Source: an uncultured Gemmatimonadales bacterium (GTDB lineage Bacteria > Gemmatimonadota > Gemmatimonadetes > Gemmatimonadales > GWC2-71-9). From it: DNA of 64,000 bases. Positions 5,832 to 42,891 of this stretch are shown in pieces (the first letter of the stretch is position 1; every line of letters begins with the position of its first letter). The notes beneath the pieces were generated by a model. That model was given only the letters and a program-made list of their open reading frames with translations. It was not told where the DNA came from and ran no database searches. The stretch spans positions 27,500-91,499 of the forward strand of contig CAWJOB010000001.1 of assembly GCA_963844445.1 (NCBI GenBank). The letters are read 5' to 3'. A program made the position numbers and the translations under genes.

Positions 5832-5841
5832 CCGGGATGCA

Positions 5842-6258: not shown

Positions 6259-6303
6259 GGCGTCATCGTGCCACCCGACGCGCGGTCTGGCAGGGTCTGG
6301 GCC

Positions 6304-8816: not shown

Positions 8817-8946
8817 GGACCCATCATCCCCTCGACGCGCAATCCGGATGCGGCCGGGCACCGAACGGGAGTACGCGCACGGGCGTGACCTGGCGCACGC
8901 TGCGTCGTTGAGCGGGGCAACACCTCACACCCTCGGGAGGGACCAC

Positions 8947-10414
8947 GTGCGACTCACGACCACGCTCGCCTGCACGGCGAGCATCCTCGCCGCCACGGCG
9001 GCCTTCGGCGCCGGCGGCACCGCCACGGCAGCCGTGTCCGGCGCCCCGCAGCCGGCCAACGTCTCCGACTTCCTCGCCGGCCAGCTCACCGGCCTGACCG
9101 GGAGGACCACCGTGCTCGTCCACGGGACGAGCATCACCGCGGCCCGCCAGGCGGTCGCCGCGACGGGCATGGCGAAGAAGGGCGAGTACAAGGGCATCGG
9201 CGTCGTGATCGCCAACGCGACGAAGTCGCAGATCTCGGCGGTCCGCACGCAGAGCGGGGTGACGTACGTCGAGGGCGGCGCGCAGCCCATCGAGTTCTTC
9301 CAGGAGACGTCCAACACCGCGACCCGCGGTGCGGAGGCGGCCTCGACCCTGACCGGTGCCAACGGCAGCCCGCTCACCGGCAAGGGCGTCAGCGTCGCGG
9401 TCATCGACTCCGGCGTCGACCCGACCCACCCCTACTTCAAGGAGGCCGACGGCTCGTCCGCCGTCGTCGCCAACCTCAAGGCGCTCTGCGAGCCGCTGAC
9501 CGAGACCTGCTCGGTCCAGAAGCTCCCGAACATCGTCGACACCGACACGCTGTCGCTCGGCGGCCACGGCACCCACGTCAACGGCATCGTGGCCGGTCGC
9601 CCGACCACGCTGACCGACGGCGGCAAGCTCCAGGGTGCCGCCCCCGGCGCCAAGCTGGTCTCGATCTCGACCGGTGCCGGCATCGTGATCCTCGGCGCCG
9701 ACTCCGCGCTCAACTGGGTGCTCGAGAACCACGCCGCTCCGTGCGGCGCCGGCGTCCCGGCCTCGACCTGCCCGCCGATCAAGGTCACCAACAACTCCTA
9801 CGGCCCGACCGGTGGCGGCGAGTTCGACCCCGAGTCGGCCACCGTCAAGCTCCAGCGGGCGCTCGCCGCCGCAGGGCGTGGTGACCGTCTGGGCGGCCGG
9901 CAACGACGGCGGCGACGGCTCCGAGAGCCTCACCAACCCGCCCGGCCAGGACCCGACCGGCGGCATCCTCTCGGTGGCGTCGTTCTACGACCAGGACACC
10001 GGCACCCGCGACGGCATGGTCTCCGACTACAGCTCGCGCGGCCTGTCCTCGGACGCCTCGACCTGGCCGGACATCTCGGCGCCCGGTGAGAACATCACCT
10101 CGTCGTGCCGTCTCTACCTGGCGATCTGCGCGACCGGCCTCGACCCGCGCAACGGTCCCGGCCTGCTGGACATCGGCACCTTCAACACGATCAGCGGCAC
10201 GTCGATGGCTGCCCCGCACATCGCGGGCATCGTCGCGCAGCTGTTCCAGGCCAAGCCCTCCGCGACCCCCGCCGACATCGAGCGGGCGCTGAAGGTCTCC
10301 GCCTACAAGTACACCGACGGGGCCGGCTACCAGTCCGGTCCGCTGGGCACCACGTCGTACGACAAGGGCTACGGCCTCGTCGACGTCGTCGCCGCCGTCG
10401 CGGCACTGGGGTGA
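8947..10414 (+). CDS. Secreted subtilisin-like (S8) serine protease; frameshift near ~9870
   Basis: It starts at GTG 8947 with a signal-like 'VRLTTTLACTASILAATAAFGAGG'. The Asp/His/Ser triad motifs are 'VAVIDSGVD', 'GGHGTHVNG' and 'SGTSMAAPHIAG'. The C-part lies in ORF 9812..10414. Confidence 0.8.
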
Positions 10415-10477
10415 CCACCCAGGGCTGACACAGACCCTCCAGGGGGGAGCCACCGCGCAACAGGGGCGCGGTGGAAG

Positions 10478-10520
10478 GAGCGGGCGGGAGCGAGAGCTCC
10501 CGCCCGCTCTCCTGTTTGCG
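10478..10520 (+). terminator. Rho-independent-type terminator hairpin downstream of the S8 protease
   Basis: A perfect 14-bp GC-rich stem GAGCGGGCGGGAGC/GCTCCCGCCCGCTC has a GAGA loop and is followed by TCCTGTTTGCG. A second 9-bp hairpin lies at 10450-10474. Confidence 0.6.
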
Positions 10521-10531
10521 AGACTGCCCGC

Positions 10532-10816
10532 ATGGAGCTGGAGTTCAGCGGTGACGTGGTCGAGTGGCGCGGCCCCGCGCCCTACTACTTCGTGCCGCTC
10601 CCGCTCGACGCCGCCGACCTCGTCGACGAGGTCAAGGCGGAGGTCGTCTACTGGGGCGTCGTGCCGGTGCGGGCGTGGATCGGCGGCACCGAGTTCACCA
10701 CCTCGATGTTCCCGCGCGAGGAGACCTGGTTCCTGCCGGTGAAGGACGCCGTGCGCAGGGCCGAGGCGATCGGCCTCGGCGACGTGGTCGACGTACGCCT
10801 CCAGGTCGGGCGGTAG
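10532..10816 (+). CDS. DUF1905-domain protein
   Basis: This intact 94-aa ORF has 'WRGPAPYYFVPLP...VYWGVVPVRAWIGGTEFTTSMFPREETWFLPVK', characteristic of DUF1905. Confidence 0.75.
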   Translation: MELEFSGDVVEWRGPAPYYFVPLPLDAADLVDEVKAEVVYWGVVPVRAWIGGTEFTTSMFPREETWFLPVKDAVRRAEAIGLGDVVDVRLQVGR

Positions 10817-10819
10817 GCC

Positions 10820-11596
10820 TCAGCCGACGGCGGCGCGGGCGGCGCGGGCGCGACGAGCCGTCAGGTAGAGGCTCAGCACGACGTAGTAGGCGACGTAGGC
10901 CACCGAGATCGCGAGCCAGACGACGCTCGGGTCGGGCGCCTGCACGAGCAGCACCGCGTAGCTGACCAGCCAGAGGCAGGTCAGGACGAGCGTGGGCGCC
11001 TGCAGGGTGGTGGTGCGCGAGGGGTAGACGTAGCCGATGGGCACGAAGACGAGCACCGCGCACACCAGCAGCACGGCCGCGGCGGCCGTCGGCGACAGGT
11101 CGAGCACGTAGATGTAGAACGCGGCGATGTTCCAGTAGCTCGGGAAGCCGAGGAACAGGTGGTCGTCGGTCTTCGCGTCGACCCGGCAGAACTGGTACGC
11201 CGACGCCAGCAGCGGCACCACCGCGAGCACCTTCGCCGAGGCCCCGTCGCCGAGCAGCCCGGTGCTCCACAGCAGCACCATCGGGAGGAACGCGTAGGTG
11301 AGGTAGTCGACGATGTTGTCGAGCAGCGCCCCGTCGAACCACGGCACGTGGCGCTTCACCTGCACCCAGCGCGCGAGCATGCCGTCCGTGCCGTCGACGA
11401 CCATGGTGGCGAGGAAGAGCCAGAGGCACCGGGTGGTGTCGCCCTCCATCACCGCGACGACGGCGAGGAACGCCAGCACGAAGCCCGAGGCCGTGTAGGC
11501 GTGCACGAGCCAGGAGGCGATCGTCGGGAAGGTGCTGCCGTGGGGAGGCCACGTCCCTCCTCGGTCGTTGGTGTGTGCCGTCGAGAGGGGGATCAT
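10820..11596 (-). CDS. CDP-alcohol phosphatidyltransferase family protein (phosphatidylcholine-synthase-like)
   Basis: The CDP-alcohol motif is 'DGTDGMLARWVQVKRHVPWFDGALLDNIVD'. It has multiple TM helices. The likely start is ATG 11596 ('MIPLS...'). Confidence 0.75.
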   Translation of the reverse strand: MIPLSTAHTNDRGGTWPPHGSTFPTIASWLVHAYTASGFVLAFLAVVAVMEGDTTRCLWLFLATMVVDGTDGMLARWVQVKRHVPWFDGALLDNIVDYLTYAFLPMVLLWSTGLLGDGASAKVLAVVPLLASAYQFCRVDAKTDDHLFLGFPSYWNIAAFYIYVLDLSPTAAAAVLLVCAVLVFVPIGYVYPSRTTTLQAPTLVLTCLWLVSYAVLLVQAPDPSVVWLAISVAYVAYYVVLSLYLTARRARAARAAVG

Positions 11597-11697
11597 GTCA
11601 GACGGAGCCGCCGGAGATGCAACCTTCGCCGGTGCGTTCCGCGTCCTCAAGGTGCATCGGGACGATCCGGTGCACGACACGAGAAACGGAAAGCACC

Positions 11698-12248
11698 ATG
11701 CGTACGACCATCCTGAGCGCCGCGACCCTGACGATCGCCGCCCTCGCCCTGACCCAGCTCGCCCCGGCCAACGCCGACGGCATCGGCGTCGAGGACCCGC
11801 AGGACCTCGACCACGGCGTCGACCTGCGCTCCGTGGAGGTCCAGCACGGCGGCCGCAACGTGGTCGTCACCACGACGCACACCGACCTGGTGGAGTCCTT
11901 CCGCAGTCCGGCTCGTCGGGCGCGGTCTTCATCGACACCGACCCGACCGACGCCGGCCCGGAGTACGTCTTCGCCGGCGGCTACTTCGTCGGCACCGACT
12001 ACACGCTGCTCCACACCGACGGCTTCGCCACCGCCGCGTGGGGCGAGCCCGGTCGAGGGGTCCTACCGGATGCGGATCGACTACGACGCCGACCAGGTGC
12101 GGATGCGGATCTCCCGCGACGCGATCGGCTCGCCGGACGAGGTCCGGGTCGCCGTACGCGTCGCCGGCTCCCGCCCCGAACGGCAGCAACACGCAAGCGC
12201 GACTGGCTCGGCGAGCCGCGCAGCTTCACCGACTGGGTGGCCCAGTAG
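11698..12248 (+). CDS. Secreted hypothetical protein; about 3 apparent frameshifts
   Basis: It starts at ATG 11698 with the signal peptide 'MRTTILSAATLTIAALALTQLAPANA'. Coherent sequence alternates between ORFs 11575..12384 and 11532..12248 ('SSGAVFIDTDPTDAGPEYVFAGGYFVGTDYTLLHTDGF'). Confidence 0.5.
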
Positions 12249-12251
12249 GGC

Positions 12252-12593
12252 CTACTTGACCTCGCGGACCTCCTGCGGCCACCCGCAGCCCTCGGCGATC
12301 CTGGCGGCCCACTCCCGGGCCTCCTCGATCGTCTCGACCTCGATGATCGTGATGCCGCCGAGGTACTCGGTCACCTCGGTGTAGGGGCCGTCGGTCACCA
12401 GCATCTCCCCGCTGGTGCCGTCGGCGCTGAAGGCCAGCGACATGTCCTCGACGAGGCCGCCGGCGAACACCAGGACGCCTGCCTTCTCCATGTCGCGGAC
12501 GACGGCCGTGGACGGCTCGACGCGGGTCTGGTACCACTCCGCGGGGTGGTCACCGACCCACTGCTGCATGAAGTAGATGGCGTACTGGGTCAT
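12252..12593 (-). CDS. YciI-family (YCII-related) protein
   Basis: This intact 113-aa ORF has 'DGPYTEVTEYLGGITIIEVETIEEAREWAARIAE', typical of the YCII domain. Confidence 0.75.
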   Translation of the reverse strand: MTQYAIYFMQQWVGDHPAEWYQTRVEPSTAVVRDMEKAGVLVFAGGLVEDMSLAFSADGTSGEMLVTDGPYTEVTEYLGGITIIEVETIEEAREWAARIAEGCGWPQEVREVK

Positions 12594-12687
12594 GGCTGCT
12601 CCTCGGTCCCGGGGCCGCCCGTGCGGCCCTCCGACACTCTGACGGACGAGCCCGGCCGAAATCGACAGGCCGGCTCGGCGAAGGGCT

Positions 12688-13561
12688 TCAATCCGTGCCG
12701 GCCGCGTCGAGCACGGAGGTGACGGCCTCGCACGACGACGTCGGGTTCCTCGCGGGGCACCTCGTGGCCGCTGTGCTCGGCGATGACGCGGCGCCCGTCG
12801 GGGACCGACCGGGCCAGGTCCTGCTGCAGCTCGTCGCGCAGCCGGTCGAACAGCTCGCGTCGTAGCCGGGAGGCCATCCCGAGGCGATGCCCGCCGAGAC
12901 GACGACCAGCGGCACGGCCGGAAGGGGTCCGGCCTCCGCGATCTCCGCGACGCTGGCGAACGGGTCCATGCCCTCGGGGTTGCCGAGCGCCGAGGCGCGG
13001 TCCTCCTCGATCTGGCGGCGCGTCAGGTGCTCCTCGAAGATCGGGATCTCCTCCGGGTGGAGGGACTCCACGAGCACGAGCCCGGCGACCTCGTCGGGGA
13101 AGGTGGACGCGTACTGCTGGGTGATGAGCCCTCCGAACGAGAAGCCGACGATGACGTACGGCCCCGGCAGCTCGGCGGCCTCGACGAGGGCGTGCAGGTC
13201 CTCGACAGCCTGGGTGGTCGTCCGGGGCGCGGACGCGGGCACGCTCCCGCCGGTGCCCGCACGGTCGTAGGAGCAGACCCGGGTCCTCTCCGCCAGGGCG
13301 GGCTGGACGTCGCTCCCACGTGCGCAGGTCGCCACCGAGGCCCGCCTCGAGGATCACCGTGGGCGAGCCGGTGCCGGTGCAGCTGAGCTGCAATGAGCGA
13401 CCGCCGATGTCCACCTGCCTGGGCCCTTCCGCGCTCGGGGTGGTGACGGCCGGCGTGGCCGTGTCCTGCTCGTCCGGCTCCGCCGGGGTGGCGCAGGCGG
13501 CCAGCGCGATCGCGAGGGTGGATGCCGCGAGGATCGCGACGATGGAGCGCCGCGTGCTCAT
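12688..13561 (-). CDS. Alpha/beta-hydrolase lipoprotein; about 3 apparent frameshifts
   Basis: It starts at ATG 13561 with the lipobox 'LAIALAAC'. It has 'TVILEAGLGGD' and the nucleophile elbow 'VIVGFSFGG'. The C-terminal 'VIAEHSGHEVPREEP' is in another frame. Confidence 0.7.
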
Positions 13562-14281
13562 GACAGCGGCCGGAGGTCGAAGTCGTCGTCGGACATCCGG
13601 AGCAGGACGACCGAGACGTAGGTCATCGCCACTGCCGTCATGGTCCACGACAGGGCGGGCTGGACGTTGCCGAGGCTGCAGCGGTGCGAACTCCACGAAC
13701 GGGCTGGCCATCATCAGCACCGCCAGCCAGCGCGGCGCCAGGTCCGCCTCTCCAGAACAGCACGCCCACGGCGATCCGCCCGAGGGTGATGAAGAGCAGG
13801 AAGGGATCAGGTACGGCGTCGTCCACGGACCGCCCGACACGAGGCTCACGTACTCGCTGATCCGGCTCGGGTCGAGGCCTGCTCGAGGCCGGCCACGACG
13901 AGGAGGTCGGAGCCGGGGTTGGCCGCGGCCAGCAGCCCGGCGAGCCCCATCCACGAGCCGAGCACGGCGGCGAGCACCGGCCGGGACCGCCTCAGCGCCA
14001 CCACCAGGGCGACGGCGCCCGGGACGAACGTGAGCGGGAACAGCAGCTGGGGCACGAGGAGCGCCTCCACGAGCCCCCGGTGCGCGGTGACCTCGGCGAC
14101 GGCCTGGCCGACGGTTCCGGTCAGGGGCACCGGGGTGAGCCAGTTCGTGAGGCCGATCAGGGCCGCCCCGCAGGGGGCGAGCACGGCGAGCAGGACCCGC
14201 CAGTACGTGCGCGCATCTCTCGACGATGTCGGGGACGCAGTGACGACGACCGGCGTGGGTCGTCGGGGTCGGGGTGGTCAT
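13558..14281 (-). CDS. Polytopic membrane protein of unknown function; several apparent frameshifts
   Basis: Hydrophobic segments ('LAPCGAALIGLTNWLTPVPLTG', 'LLFPLTFVPGAVALVVAL', 'FLLFITLGRIAVGVLFW') are spread over three minus frames. Its stop overlaps the hydrolase start in an ATGA (13558-13561). Confidence 0.45.
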
Positions 14282-14418
14282 GGGTGGCTCCTTCGAGCAC
14301 GGTGGATGGATTCCTCCACCGTGGTTCCGGAGTCGTCCCGCCTCCCAGAGGAGCCGTTCCCTGACCGGCGGGAACGCGTTCCCTTCCTCCGCGGGACCGG
14401 AGTCGTCAGGATGAGCGC

Positions 14419-16406
14419 ATGACACGCCCCGGGAGCCGGCTGCTGGCCGCGGCGATGCTTGTCGGGGCGTTCGCCCTGACCGTCGCCTCGGTGGTGTTCG
14501 CCGTCCTGGGCGGCGCTGGGCCTGCAGTGGGCGGTGGACAACTTCGTCGTGTCGAACACCCTGATCGGCGCGTCCATGGCGGCCGCGGGCTGGCCCGTCG
14601 CGACCTACCGCCCGAGGAACCCGGTGGGCTGGCTGCTGCTGGTCGGCGGGGTGGCGTACCTCGCGTCGGCTGCCGGACTGGTGGTGCTGGTGTGGGCGGG
14701 CCCCGACCCGTCGCACGGGTGGGTGCGGGTGGTGGCGACGCTGGTGAACGCCGGGTTCCCGATCCCGGTCGCACTGTCCCTCCCGGTGTCGCTGCTGCTG
14801 CTGCCGGACGGCCGGCTGCCGTCCGCTCGGTGGCGACTCGTGGCCCTGCCCGCGGCCGTCGGCGCGGTCGGCTTCCTGGCGTCGTCCCTGGTGGATCCCG
14901 CCGGTGGACTGTCGGCCGAGGCCGGTGCCCGTGACCTCGTCGCGGACGTCGACATGGGAGCGCTGGGAGGTGTGGCCGCGGCCTGCATGGTGATCACCTA
15001 CCTCAGCGCCATCGCCGCCCTCGTGCTGCGCTACGTCCGCGGGGACCAGCAGCTCCGGCGCCAGCTCCTGTGGATCGTCCTGGCCGCGGCTCCTGCTGCT
15101 GGCCGGGGTGGGGGTCGACTCCTTCCTGACCGAGGGAGACACCCTGTGGGGGGTCCTGCCGCTCGTCTTCCTGCCCGTGTCGATGACCATCGCCGTGCTG
15201 CGTCACCGTCTCCTCGACATCGAGGTCGTGGTCTCCAGGTCGTTGCTCTACCTGGCCCTGACCGGCCTGGTCCTGGCGTCGTACTCGGCCGTCGTCGTCA
15301 TGCTCGACTCCGTCTTCCGGACCCGGGTCGCCGCGACGCCCGCCATCGCCGCGCTCGCGATCGCCATCGCCTTCAACCCGGTGCGGAGCGTGCTCCAGCG
15401 CGGCATCGAGCGTGCCGTCTTCGGGGCGCGACGCGACCCCGTCCGGGCCCTGTCCGCCGTGGGTGAGCAGCTCGGGAGCGGCTCCGGGCTGCCGGAGATG
15501 CTCGCGGTGGTGTGCGAGGTCCTGCGTCTCCCCGCCGCGGCGATCGTCGTGCACGACCGGGTCGAGGCTGCCCACGGGGAGCTGCCGGCGACGTGCCACC
15601 GCACGGAGCTACGGCACGGCGACCAGGTGCTCGGCGAGCTCGTCGTCGGCCTGCGACGCGGCGAGTCCCGGGTCAGTGCGGCCGACGCGCAGGTCCTGTC
15701 GCTGCTGTCGGCGCCGGTGGCCGCCGCGGTGCACGCGGCGGCACTGGCGGAGGAGGTGCACCGTTCCCGGGCCAGGATCGTGAGCGGGCGCGAGGAGGAA
15801 CGACTGCCGCCTGCGACGGGACCTGCACGACGGGCTGGGCCCGGTCCTCACCGGTGTCGTGCTGAACGCGGATGCCGCCCGGCACCTGCTGGCGAGCGAC
15901 CCGTCGCGCAGCGCCGACCTCCTGGACCAGCCTCCGCGACCAGACCGTCGGCGCGGTCGCCGACATCCGGCGCCTGGTGCACGAGCTGAGGCCGCCGGTG
16001 CTCGACGGTCTCGGACTGGTCGGGGCGCTGCGTGAGCACGCCGTCGGCATCAACCGTCGACTGGACGGCCATCCGCTCCGGGTCGAGATCACTGCTGACG
16101 GTGGGATCGACACCGTCGGAGCCGCCGCGGAGGTCGCGGCGTACCGCATCGTCACCGAGGCGCTGACCAACGTCGTCCGCCACTCCACCGCCACCACCGT
16201 CACGGTCCACCTGGCGACGTCGACCGGGGTCGCTCCGCCTCGAGGTGCACGACGACGGCCACAACGACCAGGACTGGGCGCCCGGGATCGGGCTGACCTC
16301 GATGCAGGAGCGCGTCGACGAGCTCGGCGGCACGAGTGAGGCGCACGGCGACCCGTCAGGGGGAGTCGTCGTCGTCGAGCTCCCGCTGGCGGCGGTGTCG
16401 TCGTGA
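14419..16406 (+). CDS. NarL-type sensor histidine kinase (HisKA_3 + HATPase_c); about 5 apparent frameshifts
   Basis: The N-terminal half is multi-TM. The H-box region is 'REEER..LRRDLHDGLGPVLTG', followed by 'AAYRIVTEALTNVVRHS' and 'GIGLTSMQERVDELGG'. The sequence hops among ORFs 14419.., 14534.., 15108.. and 15872... Confidence 0.75.
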
Positions 16407-17050
16407 GCCTGCGGATCGTCGTCGCCGACGACCACGGCGTCGTGCGCGACGGGATCGCGGCACTGTTGTCGGCCATCGACGGGTTCGAGCTCGTGGGAAC
16501 GGCCGCCACCGGGGAGGAAGCCGTCCGGGCTGCCGTCGAGCTGCGGCCCGACGTGCTGGTCATGGACATCGAGATGCCGGGCGGCAACGGCATCGACGCC
16601 ACCGCCAGGCTGCAGACCCTGGCGCCCGAGGTCGCGGTGCTCGTGCTCACCATGTTCGACGACGACGCCTCGGTGTTCGCCGCCATCCGGGCCGGCGCGC
16701 TCGGCTACGTGCTGAAGGGCTCCGAGTCAGGCTCGATGATCAGGGCCATCGAGGCGGTCGCGGCCGGTGAGGCGATCCTCGGGCCGGGACTCGCACGGCG
16801 GACCTTGTCCTTCCTGTCGGCCCCTCGCCCGGACAGTCCCTTCCCCGAGCTGTCCGAGCGCGAGCGAGCGGTCCTCGACCTCCTTGCAGCGGGCCGTTCG
16901 AACCACGAGATAGCCGCGCGTCTCTCCGTCTCGGTCAAGACGGTGAACAACCACGTGAGCAGCGTCTACGCCAAGCTGCGGGTCGCGGGCCGACCTGAGG
17001 CCATCGTCCGTGCCCGCGAGGCCGGACTGGGGCAGGCCGACCCGGGCTGA
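16403..17050 (+). CDS. NarL/LuxR-family response regulator
   Basis: This intact 215-aa ORF has the receiver motifs 'IVVADDH' and 'DVLVMDIEMPGGNG'. Its LuxR HTH is 'LSERERAVLDLLAAGRSNHEIAARLSVSVKTVNNHVSSVYAKL'. Its GTG overlaps the kinase stop (GTGA). Confidence 0.9.
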   Translation: MSLRIVVADDHGVVRDGIAALLSAIDGFELVGTAATGEEAVRAAVELRPDVLVMDIEMPGGNGIDATARLQTLAPEVAVLVLTMFDDDASVFAAIRAGALGYVLKGSESGSMIRAIEAVAAGEAILGPGLARRTLSFLSAPRPDSPFPELSERERAVLDLLAAGRSNHEIAARLSVSVKTVNNHVSSVYAKLRVAGRPEAIVRAREAGLGQADPG

Positions 17051-17052
17051 CC

Positions 17053-17838
17053 TCAGCGGTTCGCGTCGTCGCGCACCAGCCGGAGCCACCCGAGGAGCCA
17101 GCGCGCCGACCGCCCACACGGCCATGGTGACGATCGCCGAGGTCCGGGTCATGTCCTCGCCGATCGACTCGCCCGTCAGCAGGAAGATCGCGCCGGTGCC
17201 GGGCAGGACCGAGGCCAGGTCGAGCATCCACTCGTAGGGGAACTGCGGCAGCGCGAGCGGCAGGAGCAGCACGAGCAGGAAGACGGTGATGAGGGCGCCG
17301 GCCGTGCTCCGGAGCGCGAACCCCAGCCCGGCGGCGAGGGCCGTGCCGGCGCCGAAGACGATCCCGGTCGTGCCGACCACGTCGAGGCCCTCGTCGAGCG
17401 GCATGCGTGAGGATGTCCGCCGCCATCGCGTGGGCTGCGGCCGCGCAGGCGACCGCGAGGAGCATCCCGACGAGGGTCGCCGTCCCGACGACGACGAGTG
17501 CGCGTGCCGCGAAGAGGGTCGTACGACGCGGCGTCCACTGCAGCGTCGGCACGATGCCGGCGGTGCCGTAGTCCGCGGTGACGGCGAGCAGCGCGAGCGC
17601 CAGCAGGACGAGCTGGGTCGGGCAGCGCGGCGATGGACGGGGCGACCCAGGCGGGCTCGCCGACGGGCGGGACCACGTCGCCCGCGGCGTCGTTGCCGGC
17701 GATCAGGCCGAGCCCGACCATGGCGACGGTCGCCGCCGCCACGAGCCACCACGTGGCCTTCACGGTCCACAGTCGCGTCCACTCGGCGCGGCAGGTCCGT
17801 CCCAGGACGAGGGCCGGGGAGGTCGTCGCGGCGCTCAT
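17053..17838 (-). CDS. ABC-2-type transporter permease; about 3 apparent frameshifts
   Basis: It starts with 'MSAATTSPALVLGRTCRAEWTRLWTVKATWWLVAA'. Later TM segments lie in ORFs 16935..17552 and 16727..17782. The start overlaps the ATPase stop (ATGA at 17835-17838). Confidence 0.65.
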
Positions 17839-18755
17839 CGGGCCGCCTCCGCCGCGGCGCCGTGGAACTCGACGCTGTCGCTGGTGAGCTCGAGGAACGC
17901 CTGCTCGAGCGACTGCTCGACGTCGGAGAGGTGGTGCAGCGGCAGGCCCCAGGCGAGGGCGAGGTCGCCGATCTCGGCGGCGGTGCCGCCCTCGACGTGC
18001 GCCTCGGACTCGTCCACGCGGGTGACCCCGAGCCCGCGCTGCTCGAGCCGCGGGACGAGCGCGCCGAGCTGCGTGCTGCGGACGCGTACCCGCCGACCGC
18101 CGAGCCCCTGCAGGATCTCCGCCGTGGTGGCGTCGGCCACCAGGCGGCCGCGTCCGATCACGACGAGCCGGTCGGCGGTCTGCTGCATCTCGCTCATCAG
18201 GTGGCTCGAGACCAGCACGGTGCGCCCCTCGTCGGCGAGCCGTCGCAGCAGCTCGCGGATCCAGCGGACCCCGTCGAGGTCGAGCCCGTTGATCGGCTCG
18301 TCGAAGAGCACGACCCTCGGGTCCCCGAGCAGGGCGGCGGCGATGCCGAGCCGCTGCCGCATGCCGAGCGAGTAGCCCTTCACGCGGCGCCTGGCCGCCC
18401 CACCGAGGCCGACCTGGTCGATGACCTCGTCGACGCGGCGGTCGCCGATGCCGTTGGTCCGGGCGGCCACGCGCAGGTGGTTGCGCCCGGTCCGCCCCGG
18501 GTGGACCGCACCCGCGTCGAGCAGCGCGCCGACCTCGCGCAGCGGCTCGGCGTACGACGCGAACGGGCGCCCGTGCACCAGCGCCCGCCCGGCGGTCGGC
18601 CGGTCCAGCCCGAGCACCATCCGCATCGTGGTGGACTTCCCGGCCCCGTTGGGGCCGAGGAACCCGGTCACCAGCCCCGCCTCGACGTCGAAGCTCAGGT
18701 CGTCGACGGCGACCACGTCGCCGTACCTCTTCGTCAGTCCCCGGACCTCGATCAC
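17835..18755 (-). CDS. ABC transporter ATP-binding protein
   Basis: This intact 306-aa ORF has Walker A 'GPNGAGKST', the signature 'YSLGMRQRL' and Walker B 'VVLFDEP'. Confidence 0.9.
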   Translation of the reverse strand: MIEVRGLTKRYGDVVAVDDLSFDVEAGLVTGFLGPNGAGKSTTMRMVLGLDRPTAGRALVHGRPFASYAEPLREVGALLDAGAVHPGRTGRNHLRVAARTNGIGDRRVDEVIDQVGLGGAARRRVKGYSLGMRQRLGIAAALLGDPRVVLFDEPINGLDLDGVRWIRELLRRLADEGRTVLVSSHLMSEMQQTADRLVVIGRGRLVADATTAEILQGLGGRRVRVRSTQLGALVPRLEQRGLGVTRVDESEAHVEGGTAAEIGDLALAWGLPLHHLSDVEQSLEQAFLELTSDSVEFHGAAAEAAR

Positions 18756-18878
18756 AGCTGCCTCCGCACCCTCGTCCGACCTGTTCGGACTCGTCGCGAC
18801 GACGCTAGGAGCCGGACTGGTCGGGAGTGGTGGAGACGATGTGGAGATCGTGCGGAGGTTGGCGCCCCTCCGCCGGCG

Positions 18879-19530
18879 TCAGGCGGTCTCGGGGAACTTC
18901 ACGCCCGTGTTGGCGTGGCAGCGGTAGCCGAAGGGGTTCTTGGCGAGGTACTGCTGGTGCGGCGTCCTCGGCGTAGAAGTACGGCGTCTCGCTGGCGGGG
19001 CGGATCTCGGTGGTGATCTCGCCGAGGCCGCGGCGGGCCAGCTCGTCGCCGTACGCCTTGGTCAGCTCGCGCGCGGTCTGCTCCTGCTCCGGGGTCGTCC
19101 AGTAGATCGCGGAGCGGTACTGGGTGCCGACGTCGTTGCCCTGGCGCATGCCCTGGGTCGGGTCGTGGATCTCGAAGAACCTCTTGAGCAGGTCGGCGTA
19201 GGACACCACGGAGGGGTCGAAGACGACACGGATCGCCTCGGTGTGGCCGGTGTGGCCGCTGCAGACCTCTTCGTAGGTCGGGTTCGGCGTGCTGCCACCG
19301 GCGTAGCCCACGGACGTCGACCAGACGCCCGGCAGCTGCCAGTAGATCTCCTCGGCGCCCCAGAAGCAGCCGAGGCCGAGGACGGCGACCTCGTGGCCGG
19401 CCGGGACCTCGTCGGTGACGACGGGGGTGTGGAGGACCACGTGCTCCCCGAGGGTCCACATCGCCTGCGTACGGCCGGGCAGGGCCTGGTCGGGCGTGGG
19501 CAGGGTGGCGGGCTTGCCGAATCCGAACAT
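18879..19530 (-). CDS. msrA: Peptide-methionine (S)-S-oxide reductase MsrA; frameshift near ~18955
   Basis: It has '[28 protein letters not shown]' and '[13 protein letters not shown]'. The conserved C-terminus '[26 protein letters not shown]' is readable only after a 1-nt shift. Confidence 0.85.
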
Positions 19531-19685
19531 GCCCCCATCATCCCCGGTCGGACAAGCCCGGCCCACGGTGTCTACGTGGAATTACGTGGTCTAGACGTCG
19601 TGCTGCCACCGATGTGCCACGTCGACGGTCGGGGCAGAGTCGGCCGCACGCATCCGTACGAACACATCGTGGAAGGTCTCGCTCA

Positions 19686-20372
19686 ATGCAGATTCGAAAA
19701 GGCTCCTACGCCAACGTTGCATCCACCCTCGCTCTCGTCGTCGCGCTCGGGGGCCGCAGCTTTGCCGCGGTCGCCATCGCCAAGAACTCGGTCGGCTCGC
19801 CGCAGATCATCAACTCCTCCATCAAGAGCGCCGACGTCAAGAACGGCGGGCCCAAGGCGGTCGACTTCAAGGCCGGTGAGCTCACGGGCGGCGCTGTCGG
19901 CCCCGCCGGTCCTGCCGGTCCATGCCGGACCTGCGGGCGCAACTGGACCTGCGGGCGCAACTGGACCTGCGGGCGCAACTGGCCCGGCCGGGCCGAAGGG
20001 CGAGCCCGGCGCGGCGATCGCAGTGGCCAGCTACGCCGCCGACGGCACCAAGCTCATGTCGAAGGTCGACGGGGTCAACCTCGCGTGCTCCGGGTTCTGC
20101 CTGACGCCCTCCCGGCGGATCCGGGTCGCCAAGCTCGCGACGGGTCGCTACTGCCTCCACGTCGAGAAGAACGTCGGGACGATCTTCGCTCCTAACTACC
20201 AGCCCTATGTGTCGGCCGCCGATCGACTACGTCGCCAACGTGACGCTCAACGGCAGCGCGCCGGGCTTCGCCCAGCAGTGGGGCTCATCGTGAGACCAGC
20301 GGTTTCGACCTGTACACCTTCACCAGCGCCGGCGCCGCTGCGGACCGCGCTTTCAACGTCATCATCAACTGA
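19686..20372 (+). CDS. Secreted collagen-like (Gly-X-Y) repeat protein; at least 3 apparent frameshifts
   Basis: It starts at ATG 19686 with a signal/TM 'ANVASTLALVVALGG'. The G-X-Y run is 'GPAGPAGP..GPAGATGPAGATGPAGATGPAGPKGEPG'. The C-terminal globular part ends '...FNVIIN'. Confidence 0.6.
19927..19980 (+). repeat. Perfect 18-bp tandem repeat x3 (GGACCTGCGGGCGCAACT) encoding GPAGAT
   Basis: The repeat was read directly from the sequence and lies inside the collagen-like gene. Confidence 0.95.
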
Positions 20373-20447
20373 CGTCGGCTCCTGAGCGACGATCACTCCG
20401 ACGCCAACTCGGCGGCGATCCTCGCGCCTGCTCGATCCGATCGAGGA

Positions 20448-20482
20448 GGAACGGCCGCCACCCGTGGGGTGGCGGCCGTTCC
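20448..20482 (+). terminator. Perfect 16-bp GC-rich hairpin between the collagen-like gene and metB (putative terminator)
   Basis: GGAACGGCCGCCACCC-GTG-GGGTGGCGGCCGTTCC. No clear U-tract follows, so its function is uncertain. Confidence 0.45.
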
Positions 20483-20519
20483 GCTGTCCGGCTCCGAGCG
20501 CTGGGTCTACGCTCGACCG

Positions 20520-21246
20520 GTGACCCAGGAACGTGCCAACAAGACCGGTTTCGAGACGCGTGCGATCCACGCCGGCTACGAGCCCGACCCGATGACCGGG
20601 GCGGTCAACCCGCCCATCTACGCCAGCAGCACCTACAAGCAGGACGGCGTCGGCGGCCTGCGCGGCGGCTACGAGTACAGCCGCTCCGCCAACCCCACGC
20701 GTACGGCGCTCGAGGGCGCGCTCGCGGCCGTCGAGGACGGCGAGAAGGGGTTCGCCTTCGCCTCCGGCCTGGCCGCCGAGGACGCGATCATCCGGGCGCT
20801 CACCGCGCCCCGGCGACCACGTGGTCATCCCCGACGACGCCTACGGCGGCACGTTCCGCCTCTTCGACAAGGTCGCGAAGCTCTGGGGCACTCGCCTACA
20901 GCGCCGGCGCCCGTCGCCGACACAGACGCCGTGGCCGCGGCGATCGAGCCGGGCCGCACCAAGCTGGTCTGGGTCGAGACGCCCACCAACCCGATGCTCA
21001 CGATCGGCGACATCGAGGCGCTCGCCACGATCGCCCACGACGCCGGCGCCCTGCTCGTCGTCGACAACACCTTCGCCTCGCCCTACCTCCAGCAGCCGCT
21101 CACCCTCGGCGCGGACGTGGTCGTGCACTCGACCACGAAGTACGTCGGCGGGCACAGCGACGTCGTCGGGGGAGCGGTCGTCGTGCGCGACCTCGACCTC
21201 GCCGACAAGATCGGCTTCCACCAGAACGCCATGGGCGCAGTGGCCA
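20520..21246 (+). pseudogene. metB: Cystathionine gamma-synthase/lyase (PLP, Cys/Met-metabolism family), 3'-truncated at ~21246 and frameshifted (~20810, ~20895)
   Basis: It has 'GFETRAIHAGYEPDPMTGAVNPPIYASSTY' and 'HSTTKYVGGHSDVVGG' (PLP-lysine region). It ends at 'FHQNAMGAV', where homology and GC content break. Roughly the last third of the protein is missing. Confidence 0.8.
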
Positions 21247-23077
21247 GTAGCAATACGGAGATGTTCTGCTGCGTGCCTTCGTTCAGTTCTACGTATTGCT
21301 CAGGCAGGCTCAGGCCAGCGCTTAAAGTAAAATTTGCGCCACTGAACTCGTTAAGCACACCATTGCGATCCGGAACAACAGCGAACTTTGCATACCAAGA
21401 CGTCCACCAGTCGTAGTTATTCTCATAGAGCAGCGCAAAAGAATACGTCAGCTTGTTGGCGCCGTCGGTCAAGTCAGACGTTAACAAGCCAGCCTGTATT
21501 TCCAAGAATCCAGGCATGTAAACTGGAATACTTGGGTGCGGTACAATGAATCCGATGTGACCCTGAACGGCTTCATGGGGCCAAGCTGTAAACCCCCAAG
21601 TAAGCAACCGAGACATGGAAGACCCATCAAAGAACGTGTCCTTCCAAGCAGGACGCACCAGATGGTCCTTAGTTATCGCCACCGCTTGTCCGGTAAATAG
21701 TGAGTGACGCCAGATCTCTCGCTTTGCGCGACCGCGACCGTGCTCATTTCCGTTATGGTCCACGTGCGACAAGTCTTTTGTGTATAGGAGCAGAATGCCC
21801 TTCTGGTAGCCATTCGAGGTGTATGGTGAAGGGCTTGCACCAAGCCTTGTGCTGTCTACCAGAGCGCCAAGTGCAGAATCGATGGTCGCTGACTGCTTAA
21901 GGTAAAAAACTCTATGGCCAGCATTGTTAACTAGGCACCTAGGTCGGACTGCGTATCCGAGAAGCTCACCTTCCCTCTCGATACGGTGGGATTCCAACTT
22001 ACGACACAGAATGTTCAAACTGTCCACCGCATCGACCAGCTTTTGGAGGGTACTAACAGGGATCAACGCATACAGAAATTCTTGTGGCTCACTGTAATCC
22101 ATCCCCGGTGGCTTTGGATCGAGCCGCAGGGTTGTCGCCGCAATGGTATCTCGAACGACCTGCATGTCACTAGTGAAAGTCCCACGCCAACCAAACCCAG
22201 AGAGCGCCTGAACGTCGCGAGTCCCCCAGCCATGATGCAAATTCCAGTTTGCATCAACGCCGGGTGTAAATTTCCCGAATGGGGGCATGTCCGGGGCACT
22301 GGAGTGTCCACCCAATTCCACCAATACGTGCGTTTGTAAGCTCTTGGCAGCTTGGCGACCGCCTAACACTAGGACGTTGTTAGGCGTACGCCCGGAGTGG
22401 CCAGCCCCCACCACTATGCGGAAATCACAGGCTAGCTGCGCTCGCTGCGGGATAAAGACAAACACCATTTCTATGTCTTCTGGGTGCCCTACCAATCCCT
22501 TGTCTCGAACGAAGTAGTAGTAGTACTCCAGCACTTGGAGCGGCGCCGCGCGGATTGTGTCAGCGAGATCGCGAGTCCGCCACTGTGTGCCACGCCAGAA
22601 GCGGTTCCACTGGAGCGGGTCATCCTTCAAGAAACGCCAAATCCTGCCATGCTCGTCCGCCGAGAGTTGGCGCACCTGGTAGAAAACGGCTGCGGCCGGT
22701 GGCTTTATCCTTCGAGCACCTCTCGCGTCTAATGCTCCCGCGCGTTGATAGACCGTGTCCAACCAATTGAGACTCAGTTGTTCATTCGTATTGAGCGTGA
22801 CAAGTGGAGTGTCCACTTGCGAGTTGATCGCGCGCGCTCCAGAGGAATCCATGCGCGCCAGGGCTGGGAGGTACGGGACGGTCGGATAATGTTCCTCCCC
22901 AGGCGCAAAATGGAGCACCGGAGCGAATAGTCGCGCCAGCTCGGGTGCCTCGGCGCCCTCGGGTATGGAGCAGACCTGGGTCCGCTGACTGGTGAGGGAG
23001 TCACTTTGCTGGGCGAGAGCTGTTTCGCATAATAGGGCGGAAGAACAGAGTCCTGCTGAAGCACACAGAAGGCGCAT
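21247..23077 (-). CDS. Secreted Vps62/DUF946-like protein with a beta-strand-rich C-terminal region; 3' end truncated at the ~21246 breakpoint
   Basis: It starts at ATG 23077 with GGAGG 7 nt upstream and the signal peptide 'MRLLCASAGLCSSALLCETALAQQ'. 'FAPVLHFAPGEEHYP', 'GHPEDIEMVFVFI', 'VVGAGHSG' and 'VELGGHSSAPD' resemble the Vps62 pattern. The ORF only stops after reading antisense into metB. Confidence 0.55.
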
Positions 23078-24797: not shown

Positions 24798-25190
24798 ATG
24801 ATCGGTGGGAGGGCGGAGGCGCTGGCGAGCGAGGAGCCGGCGGTGCTGGCGCGGGTGGAGCAGAACCTGGGGATGCTGGCGGCGGACCGGGGGGAGCCGG
24901 GGCAGGCGGCGGCCCACTATGATGCCTGCGAGCGGCTGGCGGAAGCCAGTAAGGACGCGCACCTCTTAGCCCTGTGCCTGCTCAACCGGGCGGAGGTGCT
25001 GGTGGCGCTGGGCCGGAGCGGTGAGGGGCGGCGGGACGTGGAGGCGGCGGACGTGCACCGGGTGCTGGGACTCTGCGACCGGGCGGAGGGACTACTGGGC
25101 CAGGCGGAGGTGCGGCTGGCGCAAGGCGCGGGAGCTGGCCGGAGATCACCCGGCTCGCGGCTGACGGAAGCGGAGGCGGCGCGGGACCAT
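24798..25190 (+). pseudogene. Fragment of a TPR-repeat protein gene (very high GC island)
   Basis: 'LARVEQNLGMLAADRGEPGQAAAHYDACERLAEASKDAHLLALCLLNRAEVLVALGR' is TPR-like. There is no plausible N-terminus or complete C-terminus, and the GC content is sharply higher than both flanks. Confidence 0.5.
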
Positions 25191-25220
25191 GACCCCACCC
25201 TATTCCCATTCCGCCGCACG

Positions 25221-27284: not shown

Positions 27285-28679
27285 CTATATCCGCCCTGCC
27301 TTCCATATTCCGCCCCCTGGCCAGCTCACTCTCTTGGACCGCGCAGGTCCGATTTGAACCGTAGATTCTAGATGCCCTGTATCACTAATCAAGCGTCGAA
27401 CAGCAACTGAGGAAACGGTCACCTCAACAAGCGAAGGGTCGAACTGAGTGCCTTTGCATTTCTGAAGCTCCGCAATTACGACATCCAGGCCAAGACGCTT
27501 ACGGTAAGGTCTGTCGGTGGTCATTGCATCGATCGTGTCCGAGATCAGGATGATTCTGGCCGCCAGTGGGATGGTCTTGCCCGAAAGACCGTCAGGATAG
27601 CCTTGACCGTCCCATCGTTCGTGATGATGACGCACTGAGTCCTGAATGAACCCGCGAAACTTGGAAATGATCCCGACTAGATCCGCACTTTTAACGGAAT
27701 GAGTCTGCATAAGGGCAGTCTCTTCGGGGGTAAGGCGGGCCTCTTTACGAAGCAACGGTGCAAACTCTTCGTGAATCTTTCCGACGTCGTGGAGCAAGGC
27801 CGCTGTTTCCACCTGCTCGATTTCCCGTGCAGGGAGGCCCAATTCGACAGCGATCGCCCTGGACATTTCACTGACACGAAGCGAGTGCCCAGACGTGTAT
27901 GGATCACGAGCCTCGATGGCTTTCACCATAACCTGCAGGAGCTCTTGCCCACTGTCTTGCAGCTGGTGGTACAACCCGTAGACATGGCGCACCGCAACAA
28001 TGGGAAGTATGACCCCGATCAAGCCGAGTGAGCCGAAACCGACCCAAACCTCGAACCTTGTGTAAAGCCAAGCAACCATGACTGCCAAGGCGCTGGCCCC
28101 GAGATCGTAAACGAGCACGCCCCGGGTATTCAAGTTCCATACCTCGCGGAACGCTCGCCCTGAACTCAGCACGACCACACTGTTGACCGCAGTCGCATTC
28201 ACAATGAAATAGACGGCCGCAAAGACGAAGAACAGACCTAGGTCTCGTTGCACTGCCTCAGAGGCTAGAACACCGCCTGTCATCAGGTATGCTGGTGGAA
28301 ACTGGCCGCCCAAGGCCTGATATACGAGCGCTGCAAGCGCGACGGTCAAAATCCGCTGTGATACATTGAAAACAACCTTGATTACCGGATTACCTCGCGC
28401 TAACTCCCCTAGAAAGGTGGAAACAGCAGCTACTATCGCTGCCCACCAGCCCCCGAAGAGGAGAGCGGCGGACATGTGCATGATGAAGGAGAGGGAACCC
28501 TTGGCGGAGAGACGAGCTTGGGTGTGAAGGCCTTCAAGTAAGCTTGCTACAAAGACAAACGTTGCGATGGGCCACCAGCCTGGGAAATCAAGGCCAATCT
28601 CCCTGAGAGTGGCGCCCACGGCAACGCTTGCGGCAGCAATGCCACCAACGAAAAGCCGGATTCGCACGTCGGTGGACAT
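27285..28679 (-). CDS. Membrane-anchored HD-GYP domain c-di-GMP phosphodiesterase
   Basis: This intact 464-aa ORF has about 7 N-terminal TM helices. It carries 'HSLRVSEMS', 'LLHDVGK' and 'HHERWDGQGYPDGL'. GC was about 47% in a hand-counted sample. Confidence 0.85.
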   Translation of the reverse strand: MSTDVRIRLFVGGIAAASVAVGATLREIGLDFPGWWPIATFVFVASLLEGLHTQARLSAKGSLSFIMHMSAALLFGGWWAAIVAAVSTFLGELARGNPVIKVVFNVSQRILTVALAALVYQALGGQFPPAYLMTGGVLASEAVQRDLGLFFVFAAVYFIVNATAVNSVVVLSSGRAFREVWNLNTRGVLVYDLGASALAVMVAWLYTRFEVWVGFGSLGLIGVILPIVAVRHVYGLYHQLQDSGQELLQVMVKAIEARDPYTSGHSLRVSEMSRAIAVELGLPAREIEQVETAALLHDVGKIHEEFAPLLRKEARLTPEETALMQTHSVKSADLVGIISKFRGFIQDSVRHHHERWDGQGYPDGLSGKTIPLAARIILISDTIDAMTTDRPYRKRLGLDVVIAELQKCKGTQFDPSLVEVTVSSVAVRRLISDTGHLESTVQIGPARSKRVSWPGGGIWKAGRI

Positions 28680-29071
28680 AGAGTACAGGGTCAGGAAATC
28701 CCGGTCTTACAATTGACCTTAGCTCCAGGTCAGGCCTTCAACCTTGCACAGATTAGCAAGAGCGTTGGCCAGGAACGCGAGCCACTGAATCTTCAACATG
28801 AGCGTCACCCCCGTGTAGGAAATCATTAACTCGGGAAGTGGCAACCTCGCTACGGCCGCCAGACGCTCCGCTCAAACAATTTTTCCGCTAGCACTCCGCT
28901 GGGCTCGTTTGCTACGTACTACCGTGACCGGGATCCCCTAACCTTGTGTTCCTTTCAATGATGGGTGGGCCTGCCGGCTCCCCCACAACCGCCCCTGATC
29001 GCTGTCGATAGTATGAATCCAGAAACGCTGGTCCGTAAGACCAGTCCACCCGCTCACTGCCGCCCGGCCCC

Positions 29072-29844
29072 CTAGGGCCGCCGGGCCTCGGTCCACCGGT
29101 TGGTCGCGTCCAGCACCGCGAACACCGCCGCCCGCTCCGCGCTCTCCTTGATCTCCGCCGAGCCGGTCAGCAGCGAGCGTCTCCCGCCCCCCCAGCCCCT
29201 GCACCGCCACGAACGCGAACTCCCGGTCGAACGCCTCCACGATCTTGGCGCCCTCGAGCGCGATGGAGAAATCCGTCAGCAGGCGGTCGATCACCACCAC
29301 CGACGCCTTCGCCGCCGCCTCCACCCGGTTCCGCGGCGTGTCCGAGGTCTCCTCCTCCGCCGTCTCGGTCTGCCCCCGGAACGACAGCGTCACCGTGATC
29401 ACCAGCCGGTGCGGCCGCTTGGCCGGCGCCACCGACATGGTCTCGAACAGGAGCGCCCGCTGGAGCATCTTGTCCCGCACCACGTCCCGCTCCAGCAGCT
29501 CGATCGGCCGCACCTCCGCCGTCTGCGCGATGCTGATCTTGCGGTGGTCCACCTTGAGCCCGAGCTGCGCCAGCAGCGCCGACTCGATGTTCCGCACCAG
29601 CTGCTTCGGCCTGGAGCCCGGCATGGGCCAGGATGTGGATCTCGCTCACCTCGCCCAGCGGCGTGGTCACCACCCGCGCCGAAAGGATGCCCTCGAGGCT
29701 GGTGAGCAGGTTCTCCGCCCGCCTGACGCCCCAGGGATCCGGAATGGACTCGGCCGACCCGCTGGCCCGCGGCTGACCCGGCTGCGGCGGCTGGTCCACG
29801 TTCACTGGCCCGCTTGGTCTCGGACTGAATCCCGTCACGGCCAT
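29072..29844 (-). CDS. Hypothetical protein, last gene of the Fe-S/GGDEF operon; frameshifts near ~29625 and ~29165
   Basis: It starts at ATG 29844. 'AENLLTSLEGILSARVVTTPLGEVSEIHILA' continues as 'SRPKQLVRNIESALLAQLGLKVDHRKISIAQ...' and ends '...AVFAVLDATNRWTEARRP' (stop 29072-29074). Confidence 0.5.
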
Positions 29845-29906
29845 ATACCCCGCTTCCAGGTTTCATGCGTTCAGGTAGGCGAAGGGGGTCGCCTTCATGC
29901 CACCGC

Positions 29907-31670
29907 TCATGCTACCGCGTTCCGTCCCGCGGCCTTGGCGCGGTACAGCGCGCGGTCGGCCGACACCAGCAGGTCCACCTCCGCCGGCTCCTTCGGATCG
30001 AACTCCGCCAGCCCGATGCTCACCGTGATCAGCCCCGGCGGATAGCCCATCCGGCGGCCGGTGCCCTCGATCCCCGCGCGCAGCGCCTCCGCCACCCGCG
30101 CCCCGCCCTCCAGGTCGGTGCGGGTGAGGATCACCACGAACTCGTCGCCGCCGTACCGGGCCGCCACGTCCGAGGCGCGGACCGCGTTCCGGATCTCGCC
30201 CGCCACCGCGCGGAGAATGTCGTTCCCCGCCTCGTGGCCGTACTGGTCGTTCACTTCCTTGAAGCGGTCCAGGTCGAGGAAGAGGACCGCGAACCCCTCG
30301 TCGCTGCGCTTGCTGCGCTCGATCTCGAACGCCAGCTGGTCCCGCAGCACCCGGTAGGTGCTCAAGCCCGGTCATGGGCGTCCACCGCCGCCGCCCGCTG
30401 CGCCTCGTCCGCCCGGCGCTCCTGGAACGGGGTGCACTGCCGCATGCTCGCCCGGCCCAGCGCCGCCGCCTCCGCGAACCGCTGGCAGGTGTCGAAGCCG
30501 CAGGCCCGGCAGTCCCAGGCCCGGCCGTTGGGACCCTTGCCGATCTGCTCCAGGACCGCCGCCACCGCCTCGGGCTCCGCCTTCACCCGCCGCGGCTTGA
30601 TGGCGAAGGTGGCCCCGATGCTCGCCACCACCGAGGCGTCCACCACCGGGAACCGGCTCCGGGGCGGCTCGGTGCTCGCCACCAGCTCCCGCCGCCAGTA
30701 CAGCTCCTCGTGCGGGCCCGACAGCGGATGGTCCAGCGCCCCCTCCGTCGAGAGGATGTCCACGAAGCCGAGGTCCATCCGGTCCACCGCGACCGCCCGG
30801 GACAGCGCCTGGAGCGCGTCGAGGCCCCGGATCTTCCGGAACCGCCGGCTGGAGTACCGCGACTCGTCCAGCAGCGCCAGCGGCAGCCCGCCCGCCGTGC
30901 TCAGGTGCCGCCGCCGCTCCTCCGGCACCCGCTCGAAGAAGGTCGGCTGGGCCAGGAGGCCCACCCCACGGATCCGGAAGAGCTGCTCCAGGTCGCCGAA
31001 GGTGATCGCCGCGTCCAGGTCGCTGGTGTCCACCGGGGGACAGATCCCGGCATACGCGATTCTGAGTCCCGGTGCGGTACAGCGCTCGCAGGTATCGCGC
31101 CTCGGCCACCGCGGGCACCGTCACCGGCGCCAGATAGGGCACCAGCTCGGGGTACTGGGTCCGCACCGTCTCCACCACCACCGGGTCGGTGGAGCGGATC
31201 AGGGTGCCCCACGGCTCCTCTTCCAACAGCTTAAGATATTCCGCGGCAACGAGTTCGTCGCCGATGACGCCCCGGGTCACCGCCCGGAAGCCGGCGGCGT
31301 AGCAGGCGTTGATGAGCTGTTCGGGGGTGGCCGGATAGAAGTGGGCCACCGACTCCGGGCTCAGGATCAGGATCCCGTCGCCCTGCGAGGCAATGGCGAG
31401 AGCCTTGCCGATTTCGCCATTTACCTTGACCGCCCCGTGCGGACAGGCCGGGAGGCACTGGCCGCAGCGAATGCACGCTTCGTCCACCACCTGCAATAGC
31501 AGCGGCTCGTCGCCGGCCACCGCAATCGCATCGGTGGGGCACACGCGCACGCATGCCAAGCATGCGACACAGAGCTCCGCGTCGATCGCGAAATTCAAGG
31601 GTACCCTGGACAGGGGGAGTCGGGAGACCTTGGCAATTTGACGGGCCGGGCACCCGACTGTCAAGACCAC
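29907..31670 (-). CDS. Fe-S sensor diguanylate cyclase: 2x[4Fe-4S] ferredoxin + degenerate [FeFe]-hydrogenase large-subunit-like domain + C-terminal Cys-rich Fe-S motif + GGDEF; frameshifts near ~31065 and ~30375
   Basis: The ferredoxin motifs are 'CVACLACVRVCP' and 'CIRCGQCLPACP'. 'LIRSTDPVVVETVRTQYPELVPYLAP' aligns to the hydrogenase 'TSCCPGW..YPEL' region. 'CRACGFDTCQRFAEAAALGRASMRQC' follows. The GGDEF domain has 'RYGGDEFVV' and 'RASD' five residues upstream. The start codon is uncertain. Confidence 0.7.
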
Positions 31671-31737
31671 GGATGGTGTAAAACAGTGATACAGTAGAAC
31701 TTAGCCGACCGGACCCCATGCCTCTTAGACAGCTAAG

Positions 31738-33249
<1,512 letters not shown>

Positions 33250-33414
33250 GGGGGGAAAATAAGCGAGCGGACAGGCGGGCGGGCGAGGCCTTGGCCTTCG
33301 GGGCGGCGGCGCTGTAAGCCCTGGCGACAATGCCGGGGGGCAGCACATTGATTGCGACGACGTGATCGAGCTGCTGACGAACCGAAGGCGCCCTTTCGCG
33401 ATGAAAGGCAGACG

Positions 33415-34059: not shown

Positions 34060-34160
34060 TACCGTCCGATGCGGAACGCGCTGCTCGGGGTGACCGCGCC
34101 TTGCTGGCGTCGGGCCGGAGATCGACGCAGATTCACAGCACCTCCTCCGCCGCGGTACGA

Positions 34161-36785: not shown

Positions 36786-36838
36786 GAGGGCGGCTCCGGC
36801 TAGTTGTGGGGATCACGTTTTGGATGGAGGAGGTTCCC

Positions 36839-37390: not shown

Positions 37391-37398
37391 GCAGAAGG

Positions 37399-39132: not shown

Positions 39133-39179
39133 CAGGGGGGTAACGGTTCCGGGGGCCCGCGGCGTGCTACATTGGAGCC

Positions 39180-41015: not shown

Positions 41016-41022
41016 TCCGCCC

Positions 41023-42354: not shown

Positions 42355-42393
42355 GAGTACCCAACCTCCGATTTTCGATTTGTCGCGCGGAAC

Positions 42394-42879: not shown

Positions 42880-42891
42880 AGTCGGAACAGC

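Follow-up and report, generated by a model that had tools for sequence, protein, structure and literature searches.

The window, by which we mean the whole 64,000-nt stretch of DNA analyzed here, contains two convergent genes that face each other across a 55-nt non-genomic spacer at 21,246-21,300 and that both lack their 3' ends. On the left, the plus strand carries the first two-thirds of a metB-like gene, and on the right the minus strand carries most of a gene for an uncharacterized secreted protein. The features of the locus, including the two chromosomal segments that meet there, are collected in Table 1.

Table 1. Features at and around the join, in coordinates of the 64,000-nt window
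Feature	Position	Strand	Remarks
Nocardioides (Actinomycetota) chromosomal segment	1..21245		About 72% GC; assigned by synteny
metB-like gene (Cys/Met-metabolism PLP enzyme), 5' two-thirds	20520..21245	+	3'-truncated; Pfam PF01053
AGTA	21246..21249	+	4 nt; relatives have GGGC at the same place
GCAATACG	21250..21257	+	Read-end (bottom-strand) ligation adapter of Oxford Nanopore, GCAATACGTAACTGAACGAAGT: first 8 nt, exact match
GAGATGTTCTGCTGCGTGC	21258..21276	+	19 garbled nt separating the two adapter pieces
CTTCGTTCAGTT(CT)ACGTATTGCT	21277..21300	+	Read-start (top-strand) ligation adapter of Oxford Nanopore: final 22 nt, interrupted by a 2-nt insertion
Secreted hypothetical protein gene	21301..23077	-	592 native codons; no Pfam family; 3'-truncated
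Gemmatimonadales chromosomal segment	21301..64000		Shown for 27.3-49.2 kb; presumed for 21.3-27.3 kb and 49.2-64 kb

Two convergent genes without their 3' ends

The metB-like gene may start at a GTG at 20520 or at another at 20469, the latter being the start taken in the public gene call. The plus-strand open reading frame (ORF) that contains it (20469..21416) covers positions 1-237 of the 381 in the Pfam profile Cys_Met_Meta_PP (PF01053), and when more than 40 actinobacterial loci were aligned at nucleotide level, the homology nearly always stopped at 21,235-21,248, most often at 21,245. About 145 codons are gone from the 3' end. The profile and the alignments agree with an earlier, sequence-only reading of this DNA, according to which metB is truncated near 21,246 and has lost about its last third. 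That reading also noted that the truncation would fall if the C-terminus lay in another frame downstream; a six-frame search of the window with the C-terminal 145 amino acids of the Nocardioides flavus MetB found nothing (best E = 0.96), and the truncation stands. The 315-aa product of the ORF (20469-21416, plus strand; P0291) opens as MetB and continues into adapter sequence and antisense DNA, and this read-through protein is held verbatim in the public protein collection (NCBI and ENA). Alignment with three relatives, ending at 21245, places three 1-nt insertions in the gene, at approximately 20805, 20890 and 20909.

On the minus strand, a 664-aa ORF (21083..23077) starts at an ATG at 23077 that is preceded by a GGAGG ribosome-binding site, and its N-terminus resembles a signal peptide. 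Forty-one homologues were found, one of them in a Gemmatimonadales metagenome-assembled genome (MAG), with a best identity of 41%; the protein search turned up no close public relative. Most are about 600-650 aa long and end in a conserved '...RxDL...RVxWE...FRQ' that is absent from the window copy in the alignment; in keeping with the earlier reading, the ORF has no stop of its own. Translation shows that its native codons stop at 21,301, past '...SAGLSLP', which implies that about 45-50 codons are missing. Beyond this point, the residues 'EQYVELNEGTQQNISVL' correspond to adapter in reverse reading, and antisense metB is translated as well. An end at about 21,250, originally taken from the protein alignment, was dropped in favor of 21,301 after the adapter had been recognized and the translation inspected. 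The two genes are therefore not cut at the same point, as had been proposed, but 55 nt apart, on either side of the spacer.

An exact-sequence look-up did not find the 664-aa ORF in the public protein collection; its 334-nt tail overlaps the read-through metB ORF, and it was probably dropped by the gene caller for this reason. The family to which it belongs, uncharacterized, secreted, about 600-650 aa in length and without a Pfam model, displays invariant motifs such as GHxxDIE, GGHSSxP and WGTRD, and adjoins a gene for a neutral/alkaline ceramidase (Ceramidase_alk) in two relatives (L084, 10001-11983; L085, 10001-11893).

Nanopore adapter sequence in the spacer

Read base by base, the spacer consists of AGTA GCAATACG GAGATGTTCTGCTGCGTGC CTTCGTTCAGTTCTACGTATTGCT. 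Its most informative part is the segment next to the secreted-protein gene. Here 21277-21300 agrees with the end of the read-start adapter (AATGTACTTCGTTCAGTTACGTATTGCT) at 22 of 22 bases, with one 2-nt insertion. The read-start pattern occurs once in the window, compared with no occurrence in 100 shuffles, and its local alignment at the junction reaches a score of 38, whereas the background does not exceed 22; none of the 86 related loci that were fetched contains it. Position 21301, directly abutting the start adapter, is the first base of coding sequence of the Gemmatimonadales type.

The read-end adapter is the weaker of the two features. The piece GCAATACG amounts to 8 of the 22 nt of this adapter, and with about 0.8 occurrences expected per window it is unremarkable alone. 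It is placed 4 nt past the end of the metB homology and 19 nt ahead of the start adapter, and the 8-mer has two copies in the whole window, both in the junction, the second being its reverse complement within the start adapter. The preceding AGTA might comprise the final, miscalled bases of the Nocardioides fragment together with a probable dA-tail: an A directly 5' of GCAATACG would be expected from dA-tailing prior to adapter ligation. For the 19 nt between the two pieces, GAGATGTTCTGCTGCGTGC, a resemblance to the adapter leader TCTGCTTGGGTG (10 of 12 positions) was considered and rejected as not significant, given that 304 of 2000 shuffles score equally, and these bases are treated as uninterpretable basecalls.

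On the plus strand, the order at the join is thus insert, short end-adapter piece, long start-adapter piece, insert. Both adapter sequences are given in the Porechop_ABI preprint, which assigns one to read starts and the other to read ends, and two further papers print longer versions. In the same preprint, an adapter in the middle of a read is a recognized sign of a chimeric read, and the Badread defaults quoted there make start adapters commoner and more complete than end adapters in nanopore reads. The combination of a short end adapter with a long start adapter at the join fits this known asymmetry.

Genomic context on the two sides of the join

Chromosomal housekeeping genes run for tens of kilobases in lineage-typical order on each side of the join, including msrA and metB on the left and argF and gcvT on the right. 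Among the matches listed for species-representative genomes, the clean part of metB is closest to Nocardioides flavus (95% amino-acid identity). The genome of N. flavus CGMCC 1.12791 (L001) is collinear with the window at 4457-12650, 18874-19931 and 20447-21245, with 82-90% nucleotide identity. A closer relative, contig_26576 of ENA ERZ25039469 (L086), is collinear with 4711-21245 at 87-92% nucleotide identity, stopping exactly at 21,245. Past this position, L086 and N. flavus have in common the rest of metB and approximately 9 kb of downstream genes, a neighborhood that is not found in the window. The ABC ATPase gene further upstream (17835-18755) encodes a protein that falls into a cluster with one from a Nocardioides sp.

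Within the left flank, a block of some 4.4 kb (12675-17050) is missing from both L086 and N. flavus. Its GC is as high as that of its surroundings, and it encodes, among other things, a fragment of an alpha/beta-hydrolase and a response regulator of the LuxR type. The block is probably strain-specific content; its edges revealed no adapter remnant.

To the right of the join, the ornithine carbamoyltransferase (OTCase) encoded at 44152-45186 is 90-93% identical to proteins of Gemmatimonadales MAGs and 97% identical to an ENA protein. The 12.9-kb ENA contig that encodes the latter (L081) matches the window at 36243-49202 with 95.3% nucleotide identity, and L082, a contig of 1.11 Mb in the same sample, is syntenic with 28776-46638. 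The gene order common to L082 and the window comprises TPR, argF, gcvT, MoCF, a hypothetical gene, a Ser/Thr kinase, a sigma-54 activator and an Fe-hydrogenase-like/GGDEF gene, followed by a 255-aa gene and MASE9/HD-GYP; the right side as a whole encodes a sigma-54 activator, Ser/Thr kinases and cytochrome c, among others. Judging by contiguity and gene content, the stretches at 21.3-27.3 kb and 49.2-64 kb probably come from the same Gemmatimonadales genome as well. The two inserts at the join thus come from different organisms of different phyla. By synteny and protein identity, the left side is Nocardioides and the right side, as shown for 27.3-49.2 kb, Gemmatimonadales.

The change in composition is equally abrupt. 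GC is about 72% from position 1 to approximately 21.2 kb. In 200-nt windows it is 0.71-0.73 at 20.8-21.2 kb, falls to 0.50 at 21.3-21.6 kb and lies at 0.50-0.55 from 21.3 kb; the lower-GC block extends from 21.3 to 28.9 kb, after which GC is back at about 70%. The drop of some 20 points described previously is reproduced (about 0.71 to 0.50), but its reading as the mark of a foreign insertion does not hold up, the low GC being at least partly native. The MASE9/HD-GYP gene (27285-28679, minus strand) has a GC of 0.56 in the window and of 0.54 at the same position in L082 (20597-20906), and its neighbors are at about 0.70 in both; it is a conserved low-GC gene and no recent import. This makes the GC step at about 28.9 kb a native trait of the lineage, and the low-GC block goes with the Gemmatimonadales DNA. 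The same step was considered as a second chimeric join, a possibility ruled out by L082, in which the genes follow in identical order and HD-GYP is likewise low in GC. A tetranucleotide discontinuity, the other compositional check that had been suggested, separates the sides only weakly, with z-score correlations of 0.69-0.79 among left-hand blocks and of 0.52-0.70 between the left and 29-49 kb, and was given no weight.

Two further regions of the right flank differ in composition from their surroundings. At 24798-25200 (plus strand), inside the lower-GC block, a short TPR-like ORF has a GC of 0.74-0.77 and a GC skew of about +0.27, and the DNA around it at 23.1-24.8 kb displays no clear coding frame. 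After the amidohydrolase gene, GC is approximately 0.64-0.65 at 49300-56500, and the tetranucleotide profile of this segment correlates poorly with that of every other block (0.20-0.39); no adapter match was found in it.

Both flanks carry frequent frameshifts relative to orthologues. At least 11 were found in about 12 kb on the left, or about 0.9 per kb (single-base, at approximately 5389, 5397, 5810, 5987, 9871, 11691, 11912, 18960, 20805, 20890 and 20909), and six in about 11 kb on the right, or about 0.5 per kb (single-base, at approximately 29177, 29615, 30375, 31065, 43633 and 44000), in the gcvT, Fe-hydrogenase-like/GGDEF and 255-aa genes. The two densities are too alike to be taken as a sign of unequal read depth across the join, and decay of metB as a pseudogene after a real truncation was likewise ruled out: genes on both sides are similarly frameshifted, so the frameshifts in metB are errors and not the trace of an old pseudogene. 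Their frequency on both sides points to a noisy long-read consensus, probably of low coverage, a condition under which one chimeric read could bridge two contigs. With consensus accuracy low throughout, gene calls on this contig are unreliable.

The HD-GYP protein, the OTCase, the Nocardioides-type MsrA, the ABC ATPase and the 315-aa product were in each case traced by exact-sequence look-up to a public contig 1,373,692 bp long. From the identical length and the identical sources (NCBI, ENA), both sides and the join appear to lie on one deposited contig, and the presence of the 315-aa read-through product in the public collection indicates that the chimera predates the excerpting of the window.

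Origin of the join and comparison with known systems

The breakpoint is almost certainly a sequencing and assembly artefact, marked by nanopore adapters, that joins Nocardioides DNA to Gemmatimonadales DNA and holds no biology. An end adapter followed by a start adapter is the order left by two DNA molecules recorded in one nanopore read, and the errors of raw-read level in the scar, namely the 2-nt insertion and the 19 garbled bases, suggest that very few reads support it, possibly one. Mis-assembly or the joining of unrelated sequences was the explanation preferred in the sequence-only reading, and it is borne out by the succession of the two adapters together with the switch of phylum.

We infer a single-read origin, either as a physical chimera or as an unsplit signal. 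A single nanopore read would have recorded two unrelated molecules, a Nocardioides fragment ending within metB and then a Gemmatimonadales fragment starting within the secreted-protein gene. Two molecules passing the pore in succession may have been left unsplit by the software, or adapter-bearing ends may have been ligated to each other. The read would have retained little of the end adapter of the first molecule and most of the start adapter of the second. With its internal adapters undetected, it would have been left unsplit, and a long-read metagenome assembler could then have used it as a bridge, fusing a contig of Nocardioides with one of Gemmatimonadales.

The best-surviving alternative, itself very improbable, is a join made in silico after assembly, during scaffolding, binning, submission or the cutting of the 64-kb window, with no single read behind it; the sequence-only reading had named concatenation as well. 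The abrupt switch in sequence class would be expected from such a join, but concatenation would not account for pieces of both adapters in between and normally leaves Ns, of which the window contains none. Moreover, the read-through product (NCBI, ENA) lies on a single 1,373,692-bp contig, and the window was therefore not spliced. A variant in which two contig ends with untrimmed adapters were merged through the 22-nt adapter complementarity retains a small residue of probability, and would still be an adapter-mediated artefact.

Real illegitimate recombination or inter-phylum transfer, by which a Nocardioides block entered a Gemmatimonadales chromosome or the reverse and both genes were cut, is scarcely credible. 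Truncation of both genes without mobile-element machinery is what end-joining would leave, and the join does appear to sit in a deposited contig. Against this, the exact place of the join is taken up by synthetic Oxford Nanopore adapter. The Nocardioides core DNA to its left is unameliorated and syntenic for at least 21 kb, the core DNA of Gemmatimonadales to its right is syntenic over more than 20 kb, and the metB frameshifts, with comparable ones in neighbors on both sides, give no sign of old decay. The synthetic DNA at the join effectively excludes the recombination option that the sequence-only reading had kept beside mis-assembly. To rescue it, the 55 nt would have to be adapter-like by coincidence or through secondary contamination and at least 21 kb of Nocardioides DNA would have to have entered a Gemmatimonadales genome by very recent end-joining, a combination to which we give next to no weight.

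There is likewise almost nothing to commend the insertion of a genomic island or insertion sequence into metB, with the remainder of the gene further downstream, a scenario that the lower-GC block at 21.3-28.9 kb and the return to about 70% GC could bring to mind: the window encodes no metB C-terminus in any frame, the DNA beyond 28.9 kb is that of Gemmatimonadales and not of Nocardioides, the 28.9-kb GC step is also present in a related Gemmatimonadales genome, and integrase, transposase, tRNA, terminal inverted repeat and target duplication are all lacking. The window has no tRNA and no Rfam hit, domain searches of the ORFs at 21-31 kb yielded neither integrase nor transposase, and the junction is flanked by no meaningful repeats, direct or inverted, and shows no terminal repeat or target duplication. 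The repeat and domain searches agree with the earlier reading, which saw no terminal inverted repeats, target-site duplication, integrase or transposase. Neither the marks of an integrase-mediated island (integrase, tRNA or attachment site, flanking direct repeats) nor those of an insertion sequence or transposon (transposase, terminal inverted repeats, target-site duplication, a gene resuming beyond) were found at the junction.

Being almost certainly an adapter-marked artefact, the join is of no biological interest but is useful for quality control. The deposited 1.37-Mb contig (NCBI, ENA) appears to combine two phyla, and genome bins, taxonomy, pangenome and gene-transfer analyses that use it would go astray. 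Public protein collections already include the nonsensical 315-aa 'metB' product. A search of long-read assemblies for adapter remnants in internal positions, at breakpoints betrayed by truncated convergent genes, would be a cheap and specific way to detect such chimeras.

The closest known counterparts are the chimeric nanopore reads with middle adapters that are handled by Porechop and Porechop_ABI, with which the join shares an end adapter followed by a start adapter between unrelated inserts and the standard ligation-kit adapter pair. Here, however, the chimera is seen not in a raw read but in a deposited metagenome contig of 1.37 Mb, as part of its consensus, with no more than 8 nt of the end adapter left and 2 nt inserted into the start adapter. 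Inter-genome misassemblies in long-read metagenomes and MAGs similarly unite two phyla in a contig, and gene content, synteny and composition change bluntly from one to the other. Most of those described occur at shared repeats or conserved genes, whereas the two sides of this join have no sequence in common there, and the cause is directly legible in the adapter scar. The junctions of genomic islands and of illegitimate recombination resemble this one in the abrupt GC change and the truncated genes at the boundary, but here integrase, tRNA, direct repeats and gene continuation are lacking, and the boundary is occupied by synthetic DNA.
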